From a virus: DNA of 64,000 nt. Position numbers and translations under genes: made by a program. The first letter of the stretch is position 1, and each line of letters begins with the position of its first letter. Location: IMG/VR virus record IMGVR_UViG_3300027833_000021, positions 51,065-115,064 of that record; one strand, given 5' to 3'. Below are positions 2,161 to 63,685 of the stretch, in pieces. Under the pieces are notes generated by a model. That model was not told the origin of the DNA and made no database searches. It was given only the letters and a program-made list of their open reading frames with translations.

Positions 2161-3006
2161 ATGGTAATAGTAGATAAGTTGGCTGAATATAGAAAAGATA
2201 TTGACTTAAATTTTATCAAAAAGACACACGTTCATTATTGTACACCCTGTTACGCTGGACAAATTTCAGAACCATATTTTAGGTCATGGACTAAAGGTCA
2301 CATGATGTTCACAAAATATGATATTCCATATACATTAACTACCTCAGCAAATGAGAGTTTAATATCACGTGCAAGATGTCATATGGTTGCATACTTCATG
2401 GCTAATCCAGAAGCAACACATATGATGTTTATCGATGCAGATATTAATTTCGATGCTATGGATATATTGCATATGTTACAACATGATAAAGACATTATTG
2501 TTGGTGCATATCCGAAAAAACAATTAGACTGGGAATCTATTAAAGACGCATCAGAAAGAGGATTAGATATAGGAACACTCAAAGATTGTGCGGCAAATTA
2601 TGCCATAAATCCTGACTGGGATTATAACGAAGAAACTGATACACGCAAATTGCATATCGAAGATGGAGTAGTACGGCTTAAAGATGCCGCAACAGGCTTC
2701 ATGCTTATTAAACGAAGTGTTATAGAAAAAATGGTAGAAGCATATCCTGAAATGCACTTCAATAATGATTTACACTTTGAAGAAGAATTTGCTAAATGGA
2801 CATACCTATTCTTTGATTGTATGCATGAAGAAGGTACAAAGAGATACTTAAGTGAAGACTATGCATTTTGTAGAAGATGGCAAGCATTGGGTGGTGAAGT
2901 TTGGTTAGACCCACTTGTAAAACTAGACCATGTTGGTCATTATACATTTAATGGAAACATTGGCAAAATGTTCTATACTTCTTCTCCAAAGATAGAAGAT
3001 TTATAA
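2161..3006 (+). CDS. GT-A fold glycosyltransferase (phage type)
   Basis: TPCYAG, ESLISRAR, MFIDADI (DxD) and LSEDYAFCRRW motifs. Confidence 0.8.
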   Translation: MVIVDKLAEYRKDIDLNFIKKTHVHYCTPCYAGQISEPYFRSWTKGHMMFTKYDIPYTLTTSANESLISRARCHMVAYFMANPEATHMMFIDADINFDAMDILHMLQHDKDIIVGAYPKKQLDWESIKDASERGLDIGTLKDCAANYAINPDWDYNEETDTRKLHIEDGVVRLKDAATGFMLIKRSVIEKMVEAYPEMHFNNDLHFEEEFAKWTYLFFDCMHEEGTKRYLSEDYAFCRRWQALGGEVWLDPLVKLDHVGHYTFNGNIGKMFYTSSPKIEDL

Positions 3007-3014
3007 TATAAATA
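3007..3014 (+). promoter_or_regulatory. T4-late promoter consensus TATAAATA
   Basis: Exact T4 late consensus, 5 nt upstream of the ATG at 3020. Confidence 0.65.
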
Positions 3015-3019
3015 GTAGC

Positions 3020-3481
3020 ATGAAAGATGCTATACAAAAATGGTTGGATGATTTTGTCACCAAACCTAATCCATTATTAAATGGATTCCCGCCTTGTCCT
3101 TATGCAAGAGCGGCAATTGTTGATTATATTGAGACTAACCATATTCGTTCAGAACTACATGATTTATTAAATAATTGGACAGATGATGTCCAAGTTGTAA
3201 TCGTACACACATCTACAGATAATTACACACCAGAACATCTTTCCCATATAGTTGATGAGTTTAATGAAATAGCAATGAAACAAGATATTGTTGCTTTAGA
3301 AGACCATCCTAATGATGAAGAATTTGTGAATGGTGTACATATGAACTTTGGTGAATGTATCATAGTCTTAGTACAAAGATTGAGTAAAGTAAACGAAGCA
3401 AGTACAATACTTAAGAAAAAAGGATACTATGATACATGGAGTAAAGAAAACTTAGATGATGTCGTCAACTGGAGAGAGTGA
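3020..3481 (+). CDS. DUF1415-like protein
   Basis: W..FV...N...PCPYAR N-terminus, then EDHP and LVQRL motifs. Confidence 0.55.
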   Translation: MKDAIQKWLDDFVTKPNPLLNGFPPCPYARAAIVDYIETNHIRSELHDLLNNWTDDVQVVIVHTSTDNYTPEHLSHIVDEFNEIAMKQDIVALEDHPNDEEFVNGVHMNFGECIIVLVQRLSKVNEASTILKKKGYYDTWSKENLDDVVNWRE

Positions 3482-3960
3482 TGAGTTATTCATATGCGAG
3501 GATTAATTTAGAAAAAACAAACTATAGTAAAATAGATAATTATCAAATACTTCTTAATCCAGTTCCTAAAGAACTAGATGAGATTTACTTTACATATTGT
3601 AGGCATCATAATTTTAGTAGTGTTATGCCTATATTTGATTCTGAATACTATGATAATGATGTTATAGGATATTATGACGGAGATGTACTAGTTGCATTTT
3701 CTCTTATAACAAGATATAATGATGAGAATGCAGAGTGTTTGCAATTCGCATGGGATTATAATAAACCAAAGATGTTTTTAGGTCTTGCAAGTTTAAGAAA
3801 TGAATGTGCTATGTACAAAGAATTAGGTTTTAAATATCTTTATGTTGGTGGTGCAGATGCATATAAAAACAACATGGATGGGTTAGAAATTATGACACCC
3901 GTTTCATGGATAGATAATAGGTGGAGAATAGATGGATTCGAAAAAGTACAAGGTAAATGA
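3481..3960 (+). CDS. Aminoacyl-tRNA-protein transferase (ATE/Bpt) C-terminal-domain-like GNAT protein
   Basis: YYDGDVLVAFS...QFAWDYNKPKMFLGLASLRNECAMYKELGFKYLYVG...YK resembles the ATE_C signature (SLG..S.L.EI...K..G..YLYLG). Confidence 0.65.
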   Translation: MSYSYARINLEKTNYSKIDNYQILLNPVPKELDEIYFTYCRHHNFSSVMPIFDSEYYDNDVIGYYDGDVLVAFSLITRYNDENAECLQFAWDYNKPKMFLGLASLRNECAMYKELGFKYLYVGGADAYKNNMDGLEIMTPVSWIDNRWRIDGFEKVQGK

Positions 3961-5116
3961 AGTAAACGCATGGAATGGATGGGATCCGTTAAAGCAAGTA
4001 GTTCTTGGTAATTGTTTCCCACCTGAGTTCTTCGAGGATGTGAAAGACACAAAACTCAGAGACTTATTACAACGTCTACTATATGAAACAAGAGAAGATT
4101 TACAAAATATTCAAAATACACTTGAGGGTTTAGGGGTAGAAGTAGTTCGTATGCCAGAATATGGCATGACTAATTTTCCTTTAGTGCGACATGAAAGCCC
4201 AAAGACGATAAACGAAGCCGCTGAACTAGGTATGCAAGGTGCATATAGAGACGGTAAAGTTCACGGTTTTCCTAAACCTTGTCTTACTCCACGTGATGAT
4301 ATTATAACTCTTGGTAATAAATGTTTGTTTACTAGTAATCTATTAGACAATGTTATAGAGGATGGTGAGATATTTAATCCTGACCACTTAGATTTGTTTA
4401 GTCAAAAAGAATGGAATTTATACAGACAAGGTAAAGTATTAAAAGGACCATTAAATCCTACACCTCATTTAATAAAAGATGCTACTGAACAAAGAAGATT
4501 TGATGCATCATTCCAGTTTTGGGCACCACTCATACATAGGGTTGGCGACAGACTTGTTGTAGACCAACAAGATTGGGCAAATCTATCTGATGTAATATTG
4601 AAAAGATATCCACAATTCACAGCGGCAAATATTGCAGTTGGTGGACACACAGATGGTTCAATGAATTTACCAAAACCTGGACTTGTTATATGTGGTGATT
4701 GGATGGGACCAGAAGACTTTAAACATACATTGCCTGGATGGGATGTATTGAGAATAGAACATCCAAATCAGACAAAAAGTGAGTTTGGAAGTTGGGCTGA
4801 TGAGAAACATATCACACAGGGAAGATGGTGGACACCAGAAGCAAAATCTAATCCTGAACTTGTAGATTTTGTAGACAATTGGTTAACTAATTGGGTAGGT
4901 TATGCAGAAGAAAGCATATTTGAAGTAAATATGTTATCTGTAAATCCAGAAACGATATTAAGTTTGAACTATCAACCAGAAGTACATAACGCACTGAAAA
5001 AACACGGAATAGAACCAATCTATTGTAGATTTAGACACAGAAACTTTTGGGATGGTGGATTACACTGTTTAACAGTTGATACAGTAAGAGAGGGCGGAAT
5101 ACAGTCATATTTTTAG
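3932..5116 (+). CDS. Amidinotransferase (glycine/inosamine-phosphate amidinotransferase family, pentein fold)
   Basis: VNAWNGWDPLKQVVLG, PRD, HTDG and the C-terminal catalytic GGLHCLT motif. Confidence 0.85.
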   Translation: MDSKKYKVNEVNAWNGWDPLKQVVLGNCFPPEFFEDVKDTKLRDLLQRLLYETREDLQNIQNTLEGLGVEVVRMPEYGMTNFPLVRHESPKTINEAAELGMQGAYRDGKVHGFPKPCLTPRDDIITLGNKCLFTSNLLDNVIEDGEIFNPDHLDLFSQKEWNLYRQGKVLKGPLNPTPHLIKDATEQRRFDASFQFWAPLIHRVGDRLVVDQQDWANLSDVILKRYPQFTAANIAVGGHTDGSMNLPKPGLVICGDWMGPEDFKHTLPGWDVLRIEHPNQTKSEFGSWADEKHITQGRWWTPEAKSNPELVDFVDNWLTNWVGYAEESIFEVNMLSVNPETILSLNYQPEVHNALKKHGIEPIYCRFRHRNFWDGGLHCLTVDTVREGGIQSYF

Positions 5117-5184: not shown

Positions 5185-5445
5185 ATGAGTATGGTTTATT
5201 GTACAAAATATGGCAAAGAATTGCCTGCCCTAACAACTGCACCTTTTCCTGGCGAAGCAGGTGAAAAAATCTTAAATGAAATCTCAGCACAAGCATGGTT
5301 TGAATGGCTTGAGATGCAGACTATGTTTATCAACGAAAATCAATTAAACATGATGGACCCACAGGCTAGAGAGTTTCTAGCAGAACGAAGAGATGAATTT
5401 CTTTTCGAAGGTGGTGATATTATTGAACCGCCAGAGCCTATCTAA
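5185..5445 (+). CDS. yggX: Fe(II)-trafficking / oxidative damage protection protein
   Basis: VYCTKY...PFPGEAGEKILNEISAQAWFEWLEMQTMFINENQLNMMDPQAREFL. Confidence 0.92.
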   Translation: MSMVYCTKYGKELPALTTAPFPGEAGEKILNEISAQAWFEWLEMQTMFINENQLNMMDPQAREFLAERRDEFLFEGGDIIEPPEPI

Positions 5446-5840
5446 TGAAAGAGTTGACTTATCAACTTCATGCGGCAGATGTTCCATTGAATATGCATGG
5501 AAGCGTAACGGGTGCATGGTTGTTTGATGTACTAGATAGAGCGGCACTTGTTTGGATTAATGAAAACATTACCAACAAAATCAAAGGTGTCTCCGTAGCA
5601 ACACATACTGCCGATGTAAAGTATCATCAGAGAGTTTTACAATATGGTTTTGTTTCGGCATATGCTGAATGTATCAGTGTTACTCCTGGTAAGATTACAA
5701 TTGATGTTGATTTATACAATAGAACACAAGATGAAGCGGAAGGCGAATTAGCCGTTTCTGGCACATTAGCATTTAGTATGATAGATAATGCTACTTATAG
5801 ATTAAAAAAAATACCAAGAGAATTCTTAAGTATTAAATAG
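5445..5840 (+). CDS. Hotdog-fold acyl-CoA thioesterase (YciA-like)
   Basis: LNMHGSVTGAWLFDVLDRAA motif and typical size. Confidence 0.75.
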   Translation: MKELTYQLHAADVPLNMHGSVTGAWLFDVLDRAALVWINENITNKIKGVSVATHTADVKYHQRVLQYGFVSAYAECISVTPGKITIDVDLYNRTQDEAEGELAVSGTLAFSMIDNATYRLKKIPREFLSIK

Positions 5841-5848
5841 GAGAATAC

Positions 5849-6751
5849 ATGCAAACAAATGGCAAAGTGCTTGTCACTGGCGGAGCGGGATTTATAGGAA
5901 CTGAATTAGTACAACAGTTACACAATAAAGGTTATGAAATAACCATCTTGGATAAACAAGAAAAACCAATCGGTCTAGACCATGTGAAATATATTCAAGG
6001 TGATTTGTCAAGTCCTGCAAGATGTGTTATGGCATGTGCTGGTCAAGATTATGTTATTCATTTGGCAGCCAAAGCCAGAATACCAGAGAGTTTTATTAAT
6101 CCAGATGCATACTTTGATGCAAATGTAACGGGTACAAGAAACATCTTAACAGCCGCAAGTGCGGTAGGTATTAGAAAATTTGTGTATGCGGGTTCTAGTT
6201 CAGTATATGGAAACAATGTTGCACCTAACAAACCAACTCATAAACCAGACCCACTAAATTATTACGCAATGTCAAAGTTATTTGGCGAACATCTATGTAA
6301 GCAATACAAAATTATGTTTGATTTGAACTATAACATTATGCGTTTCTTTACAGTATACTCTAAAAATCAACCTACTTCTCTTATGTTTGGAAAGTTTGCC
6401 CAACTTGTTAAAGAAGGTAAACCAGTCACTATCCATGGTGATGGAGAAATGAGAAGAGATTACATACATATTTCTGACGTAGCATCAGCACTTATTGCCA
6501 GCATAGAAAGTAAAGTTAAGAACGATACATTCAATGTAGGAACTGGTAACAATATATCAGTTAATGCAGTTGTTGATATATTAAGAGAATATGCACCAGA
6601 ATTAGAAGCAATTAACGTAGAAAAACCAAAAGGATATGCACCAGAAACATTAGCAGATATTAGCAAGACTAAAAATCTACTACAATGGTCTCCAGATACT
6701 TTAATAGTTCCTGGACTAAATGAGATGTTTAAGACTATATTTAAGAAATGA
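5849..6751 (+). CDS. NAD-dependent nucleotide-sugar epimerase/dehydratase
   Basis: TGGAGFIG, HLAA, SSSVYG, YAMSK (YxxxK) and RDYIHISD motifs. Confidence 0.92.
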   Translation: MQTNGKVLVTGGAGFIGTELVQQLHNKGYEITILDKQEKPIGLDHVKYIQGDLSSPARCVMACAGQDYVIHLAAKARIPESFINPDAYFDANVTGTRNILTAASAVGIRKFVYAGSSSVYGNNVAPNKPTHKPDPLNYYAMSKLFGEHLCKQYKIMFDLNYNIMRFFTVYSKNQPTSLMFGKFAQLVKEGKPVTIHGDGEMRRDYIHISDVASALIASIESKVKNDTFNVGTGNNISVNAVVDILREYAPELEAINVEKPKGYAPETLADISKTKNLLQWSPDTLIVPGLNEMFKTIFKK

Positions 6752-7769: not shown

Positions 7770-8198
7770 ATGAAATTAGTAGATAAAACAAATAAGATAT
7801 TAAAGACTGTCTGCGATGAACATATCATTTCAGAACATTCTGAAAAAATGGCATATGATATGATTTTAGTAATGCAAGAGCATGATGCAATTGGACTTGC
7901 CGCACCACAAGTCGGTGAGAATACAGCATTGATGATAATTGGTCATAAAGACAATGGTTATGTTGTTTGTTCAAATCCAACGTGGGAAGAAGCAGAAGAT
8001 AGTGAAGATGAAGAATTCTTAGAAGGATGTGTTAGTTTTCCTGGATTAGAATTAAAAATCACTAGACCTAATAAGATATTGGGTACATTTACAAATTTAG
8101 CAGGAGAAAGAAAAACATCAATGTTCGTAGGAGTATGGGCTCAAGCATTTCAACATGAGTGTGACCATCTAAATGGCATTACATTTGATACTCTATAA
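7770..8198 (+). CDS. def: Peptide deformylase
   Basis: All three Def motifs: IGLAAPQVG, EGCVSFP and QHECDHLNG. Confidence 0.95.
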   Translation: MKLVDKTNKILKTVCDEHIISEHSEKMAYDMILVMQEHDAIGLAAPQVGENTALMIIGHKDNGYVVCSNPTWEEAEDSEDEEFLEGCVSFPGLELKITRPNKILGTFTNLAGERKTSMFVGVWAQAFQHECDHLNGITFDTL

Positions 8199-9121
8199 TG
8201 AATTTTTCTGAATATACATTAATCAGTCTAGGTGATAGTTTTACATTTGGGCAAGATACTATTCCTGACCCAAAACACCTTCCAGGTGAAGATTCTCCAA
8301 CTTTTGGTAGACGATGGAAGAAAGCATGTAATAAACTTTCTTTTACTAACCGTCTTACTGAAAGAATGGAGTTCAAATATAACGTGAACTTTGGAATAAT
8401 GGGTGGGTGTAATGAAAACTCTCTCACAATATTAGAATCATTTTTACGAAGCAATCCAGGTATGAAGATATTTGTGTTGTTTAATTTTACTAGTTCTGGT
8501 AGAATGATGAATTTCTTTCAACTGCCAGGACAGAAAGTGTATCACAAACGAAATGTAGTACCACATCATGCAGTCGAAGTTGACACATTAATAAATTACG
8601 GTATTAATTCAAAAGATGTTGCTGACTATTATACTTTGTGGAATAATTCCATACAAGAGATATACAATCATATAGGATATAGAAGAAGATTACAGCACAT
8701 TTTATCTTTTTATAAAACCCCATACATATCATTTGATATTGCTAATAATACTGACTATCTAATAAATAGAGATAATCCTTTACGATATATAGGACCAAAA
8801 CATCAACACAGTATTGATGGTCATTTCTTTGATGATATGTATGACGATGATAGGTTTAATTTTCCAGAATTTGATTATGTAAAGTCTTACATTGATAATG
8901 TAATAAATGAAGTTCCGCCACTTACTAATCATATAACAATGCGTGATATGAATGGTAGTCGTAACCTTATAGAATACATGGCTCTTAAAGCAATTTCTGA
9001 GGGTAGAAAAAAGGATTACTATTATGCAAAAAGAATTGCTGATGGTGGACATTGGACAGAAGACGGACATCTCGTAGTAACAGATTTACTACAAAAAAAG
9101 ATATATGAGAGATACAATTAG
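8198..9121 (+). CDS. SGNH/GDSL-like hydrolase-fold protein
   Basis: LGDSFTFG, N.G..GGCN and C-terminal DGGHWTEDGH motifs. Confidence 0.6.
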   Translation: MNFSEYTLISLGDSFTFGQDTIPDPKHLPGEDSPTFGRRWKKACNKLSFTNRLTERMEFKYNVNFGIMGGCNENSLTILESFLRSNPGMKIFVLFNFTSSGRMMNFFQLPGQKVYHKRNVVPHHAVEVDTLINYGINSKDVADYYTLWNNSIQEIYNHIGYRRRLQHILSFYKTPYISFDIANNTDYLINRDNPLRYIGPKHQHSIDGHFFDDMYDDDRFNFPEFDYVKSYIDNVINEVPPLTNHITMRDMNGSRNLIEYMALKAISEGRKKDYYYAKRIADGGHWTEDGHLVVTDLLQKKIYERYN

Positions 9122-15824: not shown

Positions 15825-16142
15825 ATGATTGAAAGTAACGAAAAAGAAAAAGTACAGTCATCTAATAATTCGTTATTAGCAATAGGCGAACCGAAGCAAT
15901 ATTATGTTGTAATGCACAATGATGATAAGACTCCATTCGACTTTGTTATTGATATACTTATGGCGTTGTTTAGCCATGATAAAGATACATCGGCAGACTT
16001 AGCACACAAGATACACGTAGACGAAAAGGCAATTGTAGGAATGTATAACTTAGAAATCGCAGAACAAAAAGTTGAAGAGACTGTAAAGGCAAGCAGAGTT
16101 GCTAACTATCCTCTATCGGTATCTTTAGAACCAACGACTTAA
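15825..16142 (+). CDS. clpS: N-degron adaptor ClpS
   Basis: YYVVMHNDDKTPFDFVIDIL, IH..EKAIVG.Y..EIAEQK and YPL. Confidence 0.92.
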   Translation: MIESNEKEKVQSSNNSLLAIGEPKQYYVVMHNDDKTPFDFVIDILMALFSHDKDTSADLAHKIHVDEKAIVGMYNLEIAEQKVEETVKASRVANYPLSVSLEPTT

Positions 16143-26927: not shown

Positions 26928-27627
26928 GATTGCCTTTGTAGGCGATAGTTTTTGTTCAGAATTTCCAGAGTTAGAATTCTGGACTTCTAGGACATCAGAT
27001 ATGATTTCTGACTATCCCGCATGGACTACAATGCTCTTAGAAGAATACAATGCCACTGCTATTCAAAAAGGTATTAGAGGAGATTGTTTATTTCATGCAT
27101 TTCAGAAATTACTTGAAGTCATAGATGATGCAGACTATATAATAATCTGTGTAACTGAACCGCGAAGATTAGCAAACTCTAGTAAAATTCCCATGACTAT
27201 TACTATCGCTGAAGACCCAGAATCTCGTTATTTCATCAGCAAAGAAGTCACATCCTCATCTCTAATGTATTATAAGAATCTTATGAACTACGATTTTCAT
27301 AGAGTAGCACAACGAGGAATTATAACACAGATGGACCAATTGTTATTAAAAAAGAAGAAAAAATGTATATGGTTTCCTTGTTTCTACAATTCAACATCAA
27401 GTGACGTACTAGAAAAGCCAGGTGACATATTACAAGAAGACTATCAAATTACAAGCGGACCATATGGTACAAAACCTCTGTATGAGTTTGCAGAACTTCA
27501 CACTCCTATGATACCACATAGTAATCATTTTTCGAAAGAACAGAACGAAAATATGTTTAAACTTATAAAAGATATAATAGATACGGATGCATTCTTGCCA
27601 AGAGAACTAAATATGAGTGTAATATAA
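26899..27627 (+). CDS. SGNH-like hypothetical protein
   Basis: FVGDSF and C-terminal NHFS; similar in type to 8198..9121. Start uncertain. Confidence 0.55.
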   Translation: MEKLNALGSKIAFVGDSFCSEFPELEFWTSRTSDMISDYPAWTTMLLEEYNATAIQKGIRGDCLFHAFQKLLEVIDDADYIIICVTEPRRLANSSKIPMTITIAEDPESRYFISKEVTSSSLMYYKNLMNYDFHRVAQRGIITQMDQLLLKKKKKCIWFPCFYNSTSSDVLEKPGDILQEDYQITSGPYGTKPLYEFAELHTPMIPHSNHFSKEQNENMFKLIKDIIDTDAFLPRELNMSVI

Positions 27628-28916
27628 TGAGTGAAACTGAACCAATGAAACAAAAAGAAATCATATCTAAGACATATTGTCCACTTCCGTTTAATCACTT
27701 ATACGTACATCCCACTAATATGGCAAGTGTATGTTGTATATATCGTAAAACTACAGAGAAAATGAGTCTACCTAATATCAAAGATTATAAAAATCTAGGT
27801 GACCACTTACATCATCCATTCATAAAAGACATACAACAAAAGATGTTGAAAGGCGAGAAAGTCGATGGGTGTGCTACTTGTTATCATGCAGAAGAACATG
27901 GCTTTCAAAGTTTCCGAGAGAGAGAAATACAAACTTGGCATGTTGAAACTGGCCGTGACTTCACTCCGCCAGACTTAAACAATCCAAAACTAGAATACAT
28001 GGAAATGACATTTGGCAACTATTGCAATCTAGCGTGTAGAACGTGTGACAGTAACCTAAGTCACAGTTGGATAGATGACGAAGAAGAACTTGTAAAACGT
28101 GGACTACTTAATGCACTACACAACGCATCCCCTACATCAATGCCATTATTGCAGTCAAAAAGAATTAACATTGAAAAAGAATGGCATTCAGATGATTTCA
28201 AAGATTTACAATACATAAAGATAACTGGTGGTGAACCAATGTTACATCCTGACTTTCCTAAATTTATGGCACAGTTAGAACAAGAAAACGTTCATTGTTT
28301 CATATTTACTAATGCAAGTTGGGTACCTAAACAAAGAATATTTGACATGATAAAGAACTTTAAATTTCTTCAGGTGTTTATGAGCGTAGACGGCACGGGC
28401 GATGTACAAGAATACATGAGGCATAATGCTAAGTGGAAAACTACAGACAAATCAGTAAGAGCATGGATGCAATTTGCATCCTCTTCAAGTAATGTTCAGA
28501 TAGCGTGGGCACCAACATGGTCACTAATGAATGCACCTTATTTTGTAGAAACATGTAATTGGTGGTTAGGACTAACAGAAGAAATTAAACAGCCAACTAG
28601 TTGGGGATGTCTTAAGACAAATTTCGTATATGGTCCATCAATTTATCAAATGAGTTTATTGCCAAATGAGGCAAAAGAAAAACTAAAAATACAAGCATTA
28701 GAGTATATTGAAGAATTAAAAAATAAAGATATCGATGGTAAAGAACATATAATTGAGATGTCAGAAGCATATATAAGCAACTTTGATAATGATAATAAAA
28801 AAAGTGACTTAGAAGACTATCACAAAATGACAGATGCATTAGATGAAATGCGTGGACAATCCACAGAGAAGATGTTACCACTAACTTATGAAGCAATGCA
28901 CAATCGCAACAAATAG
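27627..28916 (+). CDS. Radical SAM protein with N-terminal twitch/SPASM domain
   Basis: CPLPF...VCC...CATC, CNLACRTC and TGGEPMLH. Confidence 0.9.
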   Translation: MSETEPMKQKEIISKTYCPLPFNHLYVHPTNMASVCCIYRKTTEKMSLPNIKDYKNLGDHLHHPFIKDIQQKMLKGEKVDGCATCYHAEEHGFQSFREREIQTWHVETGRDFTPPDLNNPKLEYMEMTFGNYCNLACRTCDSNLSHSWIDDEEELVKRGLLNALHNASPTSMPLLQSKRINIEKEWHSDDFKDLQYIKITGGEPMLHPDFPKFMAQLEQENVHCFIFTNASWVPKQRIFDMIKNFKFLQVFMSVDGTGDVQEYMRHNAKWKTTDKSVRAWMQFASSSSNVQIAWAPTWSLMNAPYFVETCNWWLGLTEEIKQPTSWGCLKTNFVYGPSIYQMSLLPNEAKEKLKIQALEYIEELKNKDIDGKEHIIEMSEAYISNFDNDNKKSDLEDYHKMTDALDEMRGQSTEKMLPLTYEAMHNRNK

Positions 28917-28929
28917 ATGGGAGTAATAT

Positions 28930-30222
28930 ATGGATAATAAATGGCAATTACATACAGGTCTAGGTGACCCGACATGTGCATTAAAATTTGGTTGGTCTAC
29001 TGTTAAATTATCAGAAGGAACATCTGCATCTTGTCATAGAACTGCATACGATAAAGTACCTGAGGGAGACTTTGGTAAATTTCATCACACTCCTACTCAG
29101 ATGGAAACTCGTAAACTTATGTTGGAAGGTAAATGGCCGGGTCAAGGCTGTGAGTACTGCAAGAAAATAGAAGATGCTGGTGGTATATCAGATAGAATGG
29201 AGGCTAACTCCATGGACCCTAAACACTTTAGTACAACTGAATGTAAAATATTAGAAGTATATTTTAGTAATGTATGTAATCAAGCATGTATATATTGCTC
29301 TCCTGAATATAGTTCTATGTGGGAAGTTGAGAATAAGAAGTTCGAACTAGAAATGGTTGTTAATCCTCATGGAAAAGAATTCCTTAAAGACAAAGATAAT
29401 TTCAAAAGAATAAAGAGTGAGTTTTGGGAATGGATGGAAAACAACCATAAGCCATTAGTTAAATATAATATACTAGGAGGTGAACCATTCTTTCAACCAG
29501 AACTCGCAGAGAATTTAGACTTCTTTGAAACTCATCCTTGTCCTAATTTGGAATTAACAATAATTAGCAACCTCAAGTGCCCAGAGAAAAGATTTCGTGC
29601 AACAATGGATAAGATAGATAATCTTCGTGCCATTGGTCATCTAGGACAGGTAAGAATTACTGGTTCTATTGATTGTTGGGGGGATGCATTTGAATACACA
29701 CGTTGGGGTGCAAAGTTAGAAGAGTTCGACAGAAATCTTGGTATACTTATGTTAGATTATAAAGAGATAGAAGTTGAAATACATATGACTATGGGTGCTA
29801 CAACAATAAAAGATATGCCAGAACTAATAACAAGATTAAACTATTGGAATAATCTAAGAAATCCATTAAGAGAAAAGTCATCTCAAGTAGAGTCGGGTGT
29901 GAAAGAGAATAGTCATATTAAACCTATACATCTCAATGCTAACTTTGTTGTATGGCCGCATCATATGGCACCTGACATATTCCCTACAGGATTCTTTAAA
30001 GAAGATTTTAAAAGGGTAAATGCAGAGTTAGACAAAGGCATCTGGCGCCGTACTTTGTATGAATTGATGAAAGGATATGAAAAGTCAATAGATAATTCAC
30101 CGGGTGATTATGAACTAATAAATAAACTAAAAGAAGATTTAACAAATATAGACAGAAGAAGAGGATGTGATTCGAAGAAAACATTCCCTTGGTTATATAA
30201 ATTTAATGAAAAAAATACATGA
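28930..30222 (+). CDS. Radical SAM protein (twitch type)
   Basis: CALKF...SCH...CEYC, CNQACIYC and GGEPF. Confidence 0.9.
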   Translation: MDNKWQLHTGLGDPTCALKFGWSTVKLSEGTSASCHRTAYDKVPEGDFGKFHHTPTQMETRKLMLEGKWPGQGCEYCKKIEDAGGISDRMEANSMDPKHFSTTECKILEVYFSNVCNQACIYCSPEYSSMWEVENKKFELEMVVNPHGKEFLKDKDNFKRIKSEFWEWMENNHKPLVKYNILGGEPFFQPELAENLDFFETHPCPNLELTIISNLKCPEKRFRATMDKIDNLRAIGHLGQVRITGSIDCWGDAFEYTRWGAKLEEFDRNLGILMLDYKEIEVEIHMTMGATTIKDMPELITRLNYWNNLRNPLREKSSQVESGVKENSHIKPIHLNANFVVWPHHMAPDIFPTGFFKEDFKRVNAELDKGIWRRTLYELMKGYEKSIDNSPGDYELINKLKEDLTNIDRRRGCDSKKTFPWLYKFNEKNT

Positions 30223-31478
30223 AACAAAAAGAAATCATATCTAAGACATATTGTCCACTTCCCTTTAATCACTTATATGTACATCCCACAAATATGGCAA
30301 GTGTATGCTGTGCATTTCGTAAAGAGGGCGAGAGAGAAAGTTTACCTAATATCAAAGAGTATAAGAATTTAGGTGACCACTTAAAGCATCCATTCATAAA
30401 AGACATACAACAAAAGATGTTGAAAGGCGAGAAAGTAGATGGATGTGCTACGTGCTATTATGCTGAAGAGCATGGATATGAGAGTATGCGTGAGAAAGAA
30501 ATAGCAACTTGGCATATTGAAACATTTCGAAACTTTACCCCACCTGATTTAGAAAATCCAAAACTAGAATTTTTAGAAATGACATTTGGCAACTATTGTA
30601 ATCTAGCATGTAGAACATGTCATAGTGACCTAAGTCATAGTTGGATTGAAGACGAAGAAGAACTCGTAAAGCGTGGTCTTATGGGTAAAGTAGGTAATAA
30701 GAGAATTAATATTGAAAAAGAATGGCACCCAGACGATTTTAAAGATTTACAGTATATAAAGATAACTGGCGGTGAGCCTATGTTACATCCTGATTTTCCT
30801 AAGTTTATGGCACAGTTAGAACAAAAAAATGTTTACTGTTTCATATTTACTAATGCAAGTTGGGTGCCAAAGAAAAGAATCTTTGATATGTTAAAAGACT
30901 TTAAATTCCTTCAAGTATTTCTTAGTGTAGATGGCACTGGTGATGTACAAGAGTATATGAGACATAACGCTAAGTGGGACACAACACACAAATCAGTAAG
31001 AACATGGATGGAATGGTCAGTCACTATGCCTAATGTTCAGGTAGCATGGGCGCCAACGTGGTCATTAATGAATGCAAGTTACTTCGTAGAAACATGTAAT
31101 TGGTGGTTAGGACTAACAGAAGAAATACTGAGAGATAAAAAACCTGGTGCAGACTGGAACTTAGTAAAAACAAATTTCGTATACGGTCCATCAATCTATC
31201 AAATGAGTTTATTACCAAAGAAGACAAAAGAAAAACTAAAAATAGATGTACAAGAGTATATCGAAGAATTAAAGAATGGTGATATTGGCACATCTGAACT
31301 TATAATTGAGATGGCAGAAGCATATGTTCAATTCTTTGATAAAAACGAAAGCAATATGAATAAAAATTTTACAGACTATCACAAAATGACAGATGCATTA
31401 GATGAAATGCGTGGGCAATCTCTTAAGAAAATGATACCATTGACCTATAAAGCAATGTACGAAATAGAGAAAAAGTAA
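30219..31478 (+). CDS. Radical SAM protein, close paralogue of 27627..28916
   Basis: Near-identical MKQKEIISKTYCPLPFNHLYVHPTNMASVCC, CNLACRTC and TGGEPMLHPDFPKF. Confidence 0.9.
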   Translation: MKQKEIISKTYCPLPFNHLYVHPTNMASVCCAFRKEGERESLPNIKEYKNLGDHLKHPFIKDIQQKMLKGEKVDGCATCYYAEEHGYESMREKEIATWHIETFRNFTPPDLENPKLEFLEMTFGNYCNLACRTCHSDLSHSWIEDEEELVKRGLMGKVGNKRINIEKEWHPDDFKDLQYIKITGGEPMLHPDFPKFMAQLEQKNVYCFIFTNASWVPKKRIFDMLKDFKFLQVFLSVDGTGDVQEYMRHNAKWDTTHKSVRTWMEWSVTMPNVQVAWAPTWSLMNASYFVETCNWWLGLTEEILRDKKPGADWNLVKTNFVYGPSIYQMSLLPKKTKEKLKIDVQEYIEELKNGDIGTSELIIEMAEAYVQFFDKNESNMNKNFTDYHKMTDALDEMRGQSLKKMIPLTYKAMYEIEKK

Positions 31479-60134: not shown

Positions 60135-61253
60135 ATGGATAATATTACAACATTAGATGCATTATACAAGCGTGACTCGAAAGGCAAACTTAGAGTTTGG
60201 GAAGTACAATGGGGCTATACTGGTGATGTTGCTGGTACACGAACTATTAGTGGACTTGTAGATGGTAAGAAAGTAGAATCAGGTTGGAATATCAGTGAAG
60301 CAAAGAATGTAGGTCGTGCTAATGCAACTACTACGATTACTCAAGCAGAGTCCGAGGCTAAATCTCAGTGGGATATTAAAGCAGAAAAAGAATACTTTAA
60401 AGACCCTAAAGATGTAGACACTTATGACAAGTTTAAGCCGATGTTAGCACATGACTACACAAAGACTAAAGTTCCTGTAACACAAGGCTGGGTTCAACCT
60501 AAACTTGACGGTATTCGTTGTATCGTAAACAAGAATGGTATGTGGACTAGAAGTGGTAAAGCAATTACAAGTTGCCCACATATTTGGGAATCGTTGCAAG
60601 GTTTCATGGAGCAAAATCCACATTACATCTTAGATGGTGAATTATACAACCATGAACTAAAAGCAGATTTCAATAAAATTATTTCACTTGTGCGTAAAGT
60701 TAAGAGTACGCCTAGTGATATTGAAGAAGCCGCAAGTCTTGTGCAATATCATGTATATGATATGTGTGATACATCTGCACCAGAAATGACTTTTGTTAAT
60801 CGTATCAAACAAGCCTATTGGGCTAAGAACGATTATGTTCACATAGTAACAACTGATTTTTGTGAAACACAGGATGAACTTGATGAACTATACAGTGATT
60901 ATATGACAAACGGTTATGAAGGACAAATGGTTCGTCAGAATACTTCGTATGAAAATAAACGTAGTAAATCTTTACTAAAGCGTAAAGAGTTTATTACAGA
61001 AGAATATGATGTTGTAAGTGTAGAAGAAGGCCAAGGTAATTGGGCTGGTTATGCCAAACGATTTGTATTGAAACTGCCAAATGGTGCAGAGTTCGGTGCT
61101 GGTGTTCGAGGCAATCAAGCACAGTTAGAAGAACTTTGGAACTCAGATACAAAACCTACTTGGGCAACATTACGTTATTTTGAAATGACACCAGACGGTG
61201 TTCCAAGATTTCCAGTAGTCATTGATTACGGCACTGGTGTAAGAGAAGATTAA
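60135..61253 (+). CDS. ATP-dependent DNA ligase
   Basis: PMLA, QPKLDGIRC (KxDG), LDGELY, EGQMVR, LLKRK and PRFP. Confidence 0.95.
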   Translation: MDNITTLDALYKRDSKGKLRVWEVQWGYTGDVAGTRTISGLVDGKKVESGWNISEAKNVGRANATTTITQAESEAKSQWDIKAEKEYFKDPKDVDTYDKFKPMLAHDYTKTKVPVTQGWVQPKLDGIRCIVNKNGMWTRSGKAITSCPHIWESLQGFMEQNPHYILDGELYNHELKADFNKIISLVRKVKSTPSDIEEAASLVQYHVYDMCDTSAPEMTFVNRIKQAYWAKNDYVHIVTTDFCETQDELDELYSDYMTNGYEGQMVRQNTSYENKRSKSLLKRKEFITEEYDVVSVEEGQGNWAGYAKRFVLKLPNGAEFGAGVRGNQAQLEELWNSDTKPTWATLRYFEMTPDGVPRFPVVIDYGTGVRED

Positions 61254-63424: not shown

Positions 63425-63685
63425 ATGTTTGAATTAGACGATTACGATAAATTATCAGAAGAAGAACTGGACGAGAGAATACAAGATGTTCTAAAGAAAG
63501 TGGACATGGCGTATTCAATGGGTAATAACGAAGTTATGAACCAACTACTTTTTCATTTAGATAATTTAAAAATGGCATTAGGTGACAAACTTGAAAAACA
63601 AAGATATGACGCAATTTCAGGAAAGTTACCAGAACAATTCAGTATAACTGATGATGAATTAGACGAGGACCCAGAAAAGAAATAA
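63425..63685 (+). CDS. Hypothetical acidic protein
   Basis: ATG 5 nt after TATAAATA (63412-19). Confidence 0.6.
   Translation: MFELDDYDKLSEEELDERIQDVLKKVDMAYSMGNNEVMNQLLFHLDNLKMALGDKLEKQRYDAISGKLPEQFSITDDELDEDPEKK

Follow-up and report, generated by a model that had tools for sequence, protein, structure and literature searches.

Three adjacent genes, here called open reading frames (ORFs) 1, 2 and 3, lie in a 64-kb window of viral DNA, which is the final part of the 115-kb IMG/VR virus record IMGVR_UViG_3300027833_000021 (record completeness 31% according to CheckV). The window has a GC content of 35%, and 81 of its 89 long ORFs are on the plus strand. Relatives reach 342-368 kb, and therefore the window phage, which is marine, is probably a jumbo T4-like phage. 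The original prediction, made from the letters of the DNA alone, had placed an exact TATAAATA in front of three abutting or overlapping genes for a DUF1415-like protein, a protein matching only the C-terminal domain of aminoacyl-tRNA-protein transferases (a GCN5-related N-acetyltransferase, or GNAT, domain) and a full amidinotransferase with catalytic GGLHC, flanked by a glycosyltransferase upstream and an epimerase downstream. This description of the locus holds in all its parts (table 1), and the three genes form a conserved accessory module that is nearly restricted to viruses. The interpretation attached to it fared less evenly and is considered where the evidence is given.

Table 1. Features of the module (first four rows) and of its surroundings in the window
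Feature	Position	Strand	Description
Late-promoter motif	3007-3014	+	T4-type motif TATAAATA, exact match; 5 nt before the ORF1 ATG
ORF1	3020-3481	+	153 aa; contains PPCPYAR; small and DUF1415-like; candidate haem oxygenase with a Cys ligand, of the YqcI/YcgG (AglA) and DUF6875 (P422) kind
ORF2	3481-3960	+	159 aa; single-domain GNAT of the ATE_C family (arginyl/aminoacyl-tRNA-protein transferase), without ATE_N
ORF3	3932-5116	+	394 aa; divergent amidinotransferase-family enzyme (pentein fold); C-terminal end GGLHC...YF
Upstream gene	2161-3006	+	281 aa; probable glycosyltransferase; phrog_1574, E 1e-43; weak match to a glycosyltransferase PHROG, E 4e-4; context, outside the conserved module
YggX	5185-5445	+	Fe(2+)-trafficking protein; PF04362, Pfam E 1.7e-30; context, outside the conserved module
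4HBT	5445-5840	+	Thioesterase-like protein; Pfam E 2.5e-4; context, outside the conserved module
Epimerase	5849-6751	+	NAD-dependent epimerase/dehydratase; PF01370, E 3.8e-57; context, outside the conserved module

The genes are tightly packed. The ATG of ORF2 overlaps the stop codon of ORF1 by one base (TGATG), and this ATG at 3481 is a likelier start than the alternative GTG at 3478, which would give a protein of 160 aa; ORF3 in turn overlaps ORF2 by 29 nt. A GGAG sequence precedes both ORF2 and ORF3, whereas no Shine-Dalgarno site is present upstream of ORF1. A terminator that would close the operon was searched for downstream of ORF3 and none was found. The TAA stop codon of the upstream gene (3004-3006) is located directly 5' of TATAAATA. 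Six copies of the motif are observed in the window against 10.3 expected, all six on the plus strand, and four of them are intergenic and stand 5-33 nt ahead of a gene. In addition, the exact motif is kept 5-6 nt before the ORF1 ATG in seven related loci despite divergent flanking bases. Because the copies share one strand, are mostly intergenic and persist in loci whose flanks differ, the occurrence of TATAAATA ahead of ORF1 is unlikely to be due to chance.

More distant jumbo-phage relatives instead have a T4-type baseplate gene whose stop codon is overlapped by the ORF1 ATG. Predicted late expression of the module is well supported by these arrangements, and transcription would start from TATAAATA or, in the jumbo-phage relatives, reach the module by read-through from the baseplate gene. 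With a spacing of only 5 nt between motif and ATG, a transcript started at TATAAATA would be leaderless or nearly so. A second TATAAATA stands exactly 5 nt before the ATG of another gene (63425-63685; motif to start codon 63412-63427), with the same geometry as at ORF1, and this repeated spacing suggests that leaderless late messages are a habit of this phage.

To describe the distribution of the module, 80 viral IMG/VR loci were collected through ORF2, of which 75 have enough upstream DNA; ORF3 and DUF6614 proteins were counted over 68 loci. A homologue of ORF1 is present in 74 of the 75, mostly overlapping or abutting ORF2. ORF3 was found in 34 of 68 loci and an adjacent DUF6614 gene in 38, with both present in five loci and neither in one. 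Five gene orders occur: ORF1-ORF2-ORF3, ORF1-ORF2-DUF6614, ORF1-ORF2-ORF3-DUF6614, ORF1-ORF2-DUF6614-ORF3 and ORF2-DUF6614-ORF1. The constant core is thus the pair of ORF1 and ORF2, which different phages extend with ORF3, a DUF6614 protein or the two together. Accordingly, the three-gene combination that was first noticed in the window does recur in many related phage contigs, but its third member is optional and belongs to about half of the loci. The linkage survives both rearrangement and 30-50% sequence divergence, and it is therefore argued that the linked genes share a function. Two metagenomic proteins carry fusions of an ORF1-like domain, in one case directly to an ORF3-like domain (P0366) and in the other to a radical SAM protein (P0342); each is a single instance that could be an artefact of assembly or gene calling.

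The ORF2 family is large, comprising more than 1,273 clusters, many of them with PF04377. Two Atlas clusters of the family, with 57 and 3,698 members, are 99-100% viral and carry ATE_C, and among 185,579 prokaryotes (one genome per species) homologues of ORF2 were found on only two contigs, both from metagenome-assembled genomes. These two contigs come from a Haliscomenobacter assembly and an uncultured Bacteroidetes assembly, and a further homologue (P0033) is labelled Saprospirales; such labels are a possible hint at the hosts of part of the family. Among 50,697 deposited phage records there was no match either to the ORF2 family (tblastn) or to the module region (blastn), and no relevant mention of the family or of phage ATE_C was found in the searchable literature. 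The matches listed by an exhaustive representative search and a profile search included only close relatives and no named distant families.

ORF1 was modelled by AlphaFold2 with high confidence (predicted local distance difference test score, pLDDT, 95) as a four-stranded sheet between helices. The closest known structure is that of AglA, a YqcI/YcgG enzyme with a 'sandwich' fold in which Cys44 binds haem and which N-hydroxylates the guanidine of aminomethylphosphonate-arginine (AMPn-Arg) (PMC12866846). AglA ranked first among 48,161 chains (Z 5.7, VIA-align), and in a second structural comparison all four AglA entries came out on top, with Z 6.1-6.5 and 135-138 of the 153 residues aligned, the next row, an unrelated protein, having Z 4.2; no other structure rose above background. 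Foldseek gave no match of the model to the PDB at E up to 0.001, and sequence and profile searches of ORF1 against the PDB gave chance matches only.

At the level of sequence profiles, ORF1 aligns with eight DUF1415 (PF07209) proteins (hhalign Prob 87%, E 4e-6) over 40 N-terminal columns only, which cover a helix and the motif CPFA, or CPYA in ORF1; Pfam itself reports DUF1415 in five of 56 ORF1 relatives, with a best E of 0.0016. The DUF6875 family (PF21780) has recently been renamed cytochrome P422, and its members bind haem through a thiolate, have a fold of the AglA kind and carry the haem motif RxGxVCP (bioRxiv 10.64898/2025.12.11.692455; see also PMC13307353). ORF1 itself scores 14.4 bits against this family, which is below the cut-off of 24.5, and sub-threshold matches at E up to 0.1 occur in 33 of the 56 relatives (best 5e-5). 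The haem motif is only partly present, as G-x-x-P-C-P without the Arg, and the tryptophan-binding motifs of P422 are not seen in ORF1. No DUF6875 proteins were found in 301 Bacteroidota genomes. No match to YqcI/YcgG (PF08892) was found anywhere in the record at E up to 1, and the direct alignment of ORF1 with that family is faint (hhalign Prob 9%, P 0.0035), but it sets Cys26 on the family Cys. The same residue falls on the Cys of DUF1415, which itself aligns with the Cys of YqcI/YcgG.

Cys26, the one Cys kept in every member, and Pro27 and Ala29 are invariant across the ORF1 family, including S-PM2 p080 and HMO-2011 gp66, as are W8, A32, Q119 and Y137. ORF1 has in common with DUF1415, P422 and YqcI/YcgG an N-terminal helix followed by an invariant motif of the Cys-Pro-(Phe/Tyr)-Ala type and a four-stranded sheet between helices; its Cys is located in the loop after helix 1, as are Cys44 of AglA and the RxGxVCP motif, and in both P422 and YqcI/YcgG this Cys is a proven haem ligand. 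The profile matches are partial or sub-threshold. The original description of ORF1 as DUF1415-like is upheld, and because the links to DUF1415, DUF6875, YqcI/YcgG and AglA, each of them weak, all agree in direction, it is somewhat probable that ORF1 binds haem through a thiolate.

For ORF2, ATE_C is the only Pfam match (E 8e-4), and the window protein alone stays below the cut-off with 20.4 bits against 25. The family as a whole aligns with 12 proteins from Bacteroidota, all above the PF04377 cut-off (hhalign Prob 94%, E 1e-7, 144 columns), whereas cross-controls gave 0.2-0.3%. The alignment covers ORF2 over its whole length and positions 59-226 of the bacterial proteins, and no Pfam match to ATE_N is present. 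The best PDB profile match is yeast ATE1, and the motifs LG..S...E, Y.YxG and YK..x.G.E are common to ORF2 and ATE_C. These similarities indicate that ORF2 is a genuine but minimal member of the ATE_C family; it differs from ATE1 and Bpt, which combine ATE_N with ATE_C, in lacking both ATE_N and the Cys-rich zinc/Fe-S region.

AlphaFold2 gives ORF2 one complete GNAT domain of some 140 residues (pLDDT 87), which in structure comes closest to the second lobe of MprF (Z 14.3; residues 639-843) and that of FemX (Z 13.4). VlmA, from valanimycin biosynthesis, belongs to the same group of best fold matches (Z 13.4-14.3). All of these proteins are double-GNAT enzymes of at least 300 residues, without detectable sequence similarity to ORF2. 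ORF2 is not an ordinary acetyl-CoA (coenzyme A) GNAT, an outcome that would have refuted the original prediction: besides its homology to ATE_C, no acetyltransferase family of Pfam matches it at E up to 1, and the conserved CoA-pyrophosphate motif Q/RxxGxG/A in the loop between strand 4 and helix 3 is replaced by the family consensus P-K-L-x-L-G-I-x-S, which lacks a conserved Arg or Gln at -3 and has neither Gly nor Ala at +2.

ORF3 gave no match in Pfam, including PF02274, and on its own it matches the C-termini of SxtG, StrB1, HsvA and AGAT. A profile built from 20 family members aligns with AGAT over the full length (E 1.4e-26) and also matches SxtG, HsvA and StrB1, which together with the motifs places ORF3 in the amidinotransferase family. 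The positions R121-D122, H239-x-D241 and C379, invariant in the 20 members, correspond to D170, H303/D305 and C407 of AGAT, the Cys being the nucleophile within GG.HC, and an N-terminal WDPL..V..G is shared as well. On the other hand, the ORF3 family has an invariant RHRxFWDGG motif of its own and long variable insertions that set it apart from the characterised enzymes. Campylobacter phages of the CP220 group and cyanophage S-SCSM2R encode distant relatives of ORF3; the S-SCSM2R gene stands among genes for KdsA, KdsB, a glycosyltransferase and 2-oxoglutarate oxygenases, and its protein was detected in a virion preparation (PMC12801897).

The known members of all three protein families handle arginine or guanidines, which is why a modification centred on arginine, of a small molecule or of a side chain, is favoured here. 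By analogy with the AglC/AglA pair, we propose, tentatively and with more reserve than conviction, that the late-expressed module acts on arginine or guanidine groups and combines aminoacyl transfer, N-oxygenation and amidino transfer. A single substrate with an amine or guanidine group would pass from one of the three proteins to the next. ORF2 would take an aminoacyl group, most likely arginyl to judge from family resemblance, from charged tRNA of the host and attach it to an amine or hydroxylamine. ORF1 would bind haem through Cys26 and oxygenate a nitrogen of the substrate, probably by N-hydroxylation, with O2 and host reductants of the ferredoxin type. Finally, the Cys379/His239 site of ORF3 would transfer the amidino group of arginine, or of oxidised arginine, to an acceptor amine.

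The core of this scheme has one described precedent outside phages, in the arginine chemistry of an antibiotic pathway. In the biosynthesis of argolaphos in Streptomyces monomycini, AMPn is converted to AMPn-Arg with tRNA, arginyl-tRNA synthetase and AglC, after which AglA hydroxylates the product (PMC12866846); the argolaphos cluster also encodes the GNAT-superfamily aminoacyl-tRNA enzymes AlpF and AlpO (PMC8976061). There, as proposed here, an aminoacyl-tRNA-dependent transferase is paired with a small Cys-ligated haem 'sandwich' enzyme that N-hydroxylates the guanidine of the appended arginine, and it is this enzyme that is the best structural match of ORF1. There are also differences. ORF2 is a single ATE_C-type GNAT; the host of the genes is a phage and not an actinomycete, phosphonate genes are absent and an amidinotransferase is added. 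VlmA illustrates the reverse order, in which the product of an N-hydroxylase, a hydroxylamine, is aminoacylated from Ser-tRNA (PMC12945691).

The original prediction had suggested a different part for the first protein, namely that the DUF1415-like protein may replace the missing ATE_N. This role was rejected for two reasons: ORF1 has a different fold, closest to AglA, and it occurs on its own in cultured cyanophages and in HMO-2011. Co-folding of ORF1 with ORF2 gave an ipSAE of 0.00 in two runs without controls, which is uninformative either way.

Several observations weigh against the proposed arginine chemistry. For ORF1, the links to haem families are weak (Z of about 6, 9% with YqcI, no Pfam match at the cut-off), the protein is 90 residues shorter than AglA (153 against 243 aa), so that the propionate-binding residues cannot be mapped, and its presence without ORF2 in the phages just mentioned means that it does not need ORF2. 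For ORF2, the second lobes of CoA-dependent tandem GNATs (NMT, VipF) reach a Z of about 13, which is within about one unit of the tRNA-dependent ones and amounts to a tie. The protein is also acidic (isoelectric point 4.8; family median 5.6), a mild argument against direct binding of tRNA, and it consists of one GNAT lobe, the double GNAT fold with its interlobe substrate site being absent from the model, whereas every characterised aminoacyl-tRNA GNAT transferase has two GNAT lobes and a tRNA-binding helix (PMC12945691). Because the characterised enzymes are two-lobed and ORF2 is acidic, we only infer its use of tRNA. For ORF3, Asp254 of the AGAT triad aligns to a Trp, within a poorly conserved stretch.

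In eukaryotes, oxidation of Cys precedes arginylation, and the module could accordingly remodel protein N-degrons, with ORF1 oxidising the N-terminal residue, ORF2 adding an amino acid like Bpt or ATE1, and phage ClpS/ClpX destroying early phage proteins or proteins of the host. Every ATE_C-family enzyme that has been characterised modifies the N-termini of proteins, and ORF2 is homologous to them over its whole length; moreover, the window phage encodes ClpS (15825-16142; PF02617, 83 bits), as do three of the ten other phage records with ORF2 that were searched, one of them a complete genome of 342 kb with terminal repeats. ClpS is, however, never adjacent to the module, it was not found in the other seven records, which are fragmentary, and it is also present in cultured jumbo phages that have no ORF2. 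ATE_N, which in ATE1 holds the contacts with the peptide substrate and tRNA (PMC10115844), is absent, and the amidinotransferase and DUF6614 would have no obvious role; N-degron remodelling is considered improbable. A decoration of glycans or nucleotide sugars, which the original prediction had named among the possible targets, would have ORF3 amidinate an amino sugar, ORF2 N-acylate or aminoacylate it, and the neighbouring glycosyltransferase and epimerase build the sugar and attach it to a virion or cell-surface glycan. The two neighbours are indeed there, directly upstream and 0.7 kb downstream of the module, and the setting of the ORF3-like gene of S-SCSM2R and its protein in the virion preparation point in the same direction; amidinotransferases of the StrB1 type act on aminocyclitols. 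But the glycosyltransferase, YggX, thioesterase and epimerase genes adjoin the module only in the three closest relatives (L001-L003), other neighbours being found elsewhere, and a haem oxygenase has no role in this scheme, so that the link to glycans is weak and we give it little credence.

It may also be that there is no joint pathway and that independent accessory genes have gathered in a variable region of the late cluster. In that case ORF2 would be an N-acyltransferase that uses acyl-CoA, or a GNAT without catalytic activity, and ORF1 would be a metal or thiol protein that carries no haem. The solitary ORF1 of cultured cyanophages, the optional nature of ORF3, fold scores that do not separate tRNA-dependent from CoA-dependent GNATs and the weak link to haem would all agree with this. 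What makes independence unlikely to be the answer is that ORF1 and ORF2 are linked in 74 of 75 loci, across 30-50% divergence and several gene orders including ORF2-DUF6614-ORF1, that start and stop codons overlap, and that ORF2 combines the 94% homology to ATE_C with the absence of the conserved CoA motif. Absence of such co-occurrence in related phages had been named at the outset as a refutation of the original prediction; the genes do co-occur. Lastly, an anti-defence module, whose proteins modify or deplete a host immune signal or component, is suggested by the report that a phage gene annotated as DUF6614 has activity against Druantia type I (bioRxiv 10.1101/2024.04.14.589459), DUF6614 being the commonest third gene of the module. 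This connection depends on one annotation in one preprint, the record of the window has no match to DUF6614, and PADLOC returned no meaningful matches; a function in anti-defence therefore appears very improbable. Compared with these alternatives, arginine-centred chemistry remains the reading that we prefer.

Outside the three closest relatives, the neighbours of the module vary and include gp23- and gp19-like genes, capsid, tail and baseplate genes, uvsW, and genes for a methyltransferase, radical SAM proteins, PutA and a phosphoribosyltransferase. The PutA gene is found in a complete 342,607-bp phage record (L045:1565-4411) about 1 kb upstream of the module, with two short ORFs between; it encodes a full-length protein of 948 aa with proline dehydrogenase and aldehyde dehydrogenase parts, and is an unusual metabolic gene for a phage. 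Radical SAM genes stand near the module in L017, and the window itself contains three tandem radical SAM paralogues of 419-430 aa (27627-31478). In the window, the YggX-type protein encoded directly 3' of ORF3 would be notable if ORF1 is an iron or haem protein. Upstream of the glycosyltransferase gene, a perfect sigma-70 consensus (1347-1375; TTGACA, a spacing of 17 nt and TATAAT, with an upstream TG) precedes a gene for a zeta-toxin/AAA_33-like kinase (1440-2153) and is likely an early promoter for the kinase and glycosyltransferase genes. Further genes of the window include one with peptide deformylase motifs (7770-8198; EGC..FPG and HE.DH) and one with a GDS(F/L) motif at its start, as is typical for SGNH hydrolases (8198-9121), both judged by eye, and an ATP-dependent DNA ligase (60135-61253; phrog_114, E 3e-63).

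What does the module add to what is already known? The kinds of enzymes are familiar, and one bacterial pathway already pairs a haem N-hydroxylase with an aminoacyl-tRNA transferase; the viral setting, the very wide spread and the minimal single-domain forms are new, and so are the recruitment of an amidinotransferase and DUF6614 and the cofactor proposed for DUF1415-like phage proteins. The ORF2 family, with thousands of members that are nearly all viral, represents a widespread phage function that is wholly unstudied. Use of aminoacyl-tRNA by ORF2 would make it the first such enzyme with a single lobe and would open a new phage route into the translation pool of the host. If ORF1 binds haem, no smaller protein would be known among the newly recognised thiolate-haem 'sandwich' enzymes, and a cofactor could be assigned to the DUF1415-like proteins common among cyanophages, of which S-PM2 is an example. 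It is conceivable, although doubtful at present, that large marine and freshwater phages encode a pathway resembling those of natural products, in which a minimal haem N-oxygenase with a Cys ligand and an amidinotransferase, together with charged tRNA of the host, yield, late in infection, an arginine-derived N-hydroxyguanidine or a compound with an N-N bond. This product could serve as an antimetabolite or a signal, or could modify a component of the virion, and such a virus-encoded pathway would be built from the smallest known versions of these enzymes.

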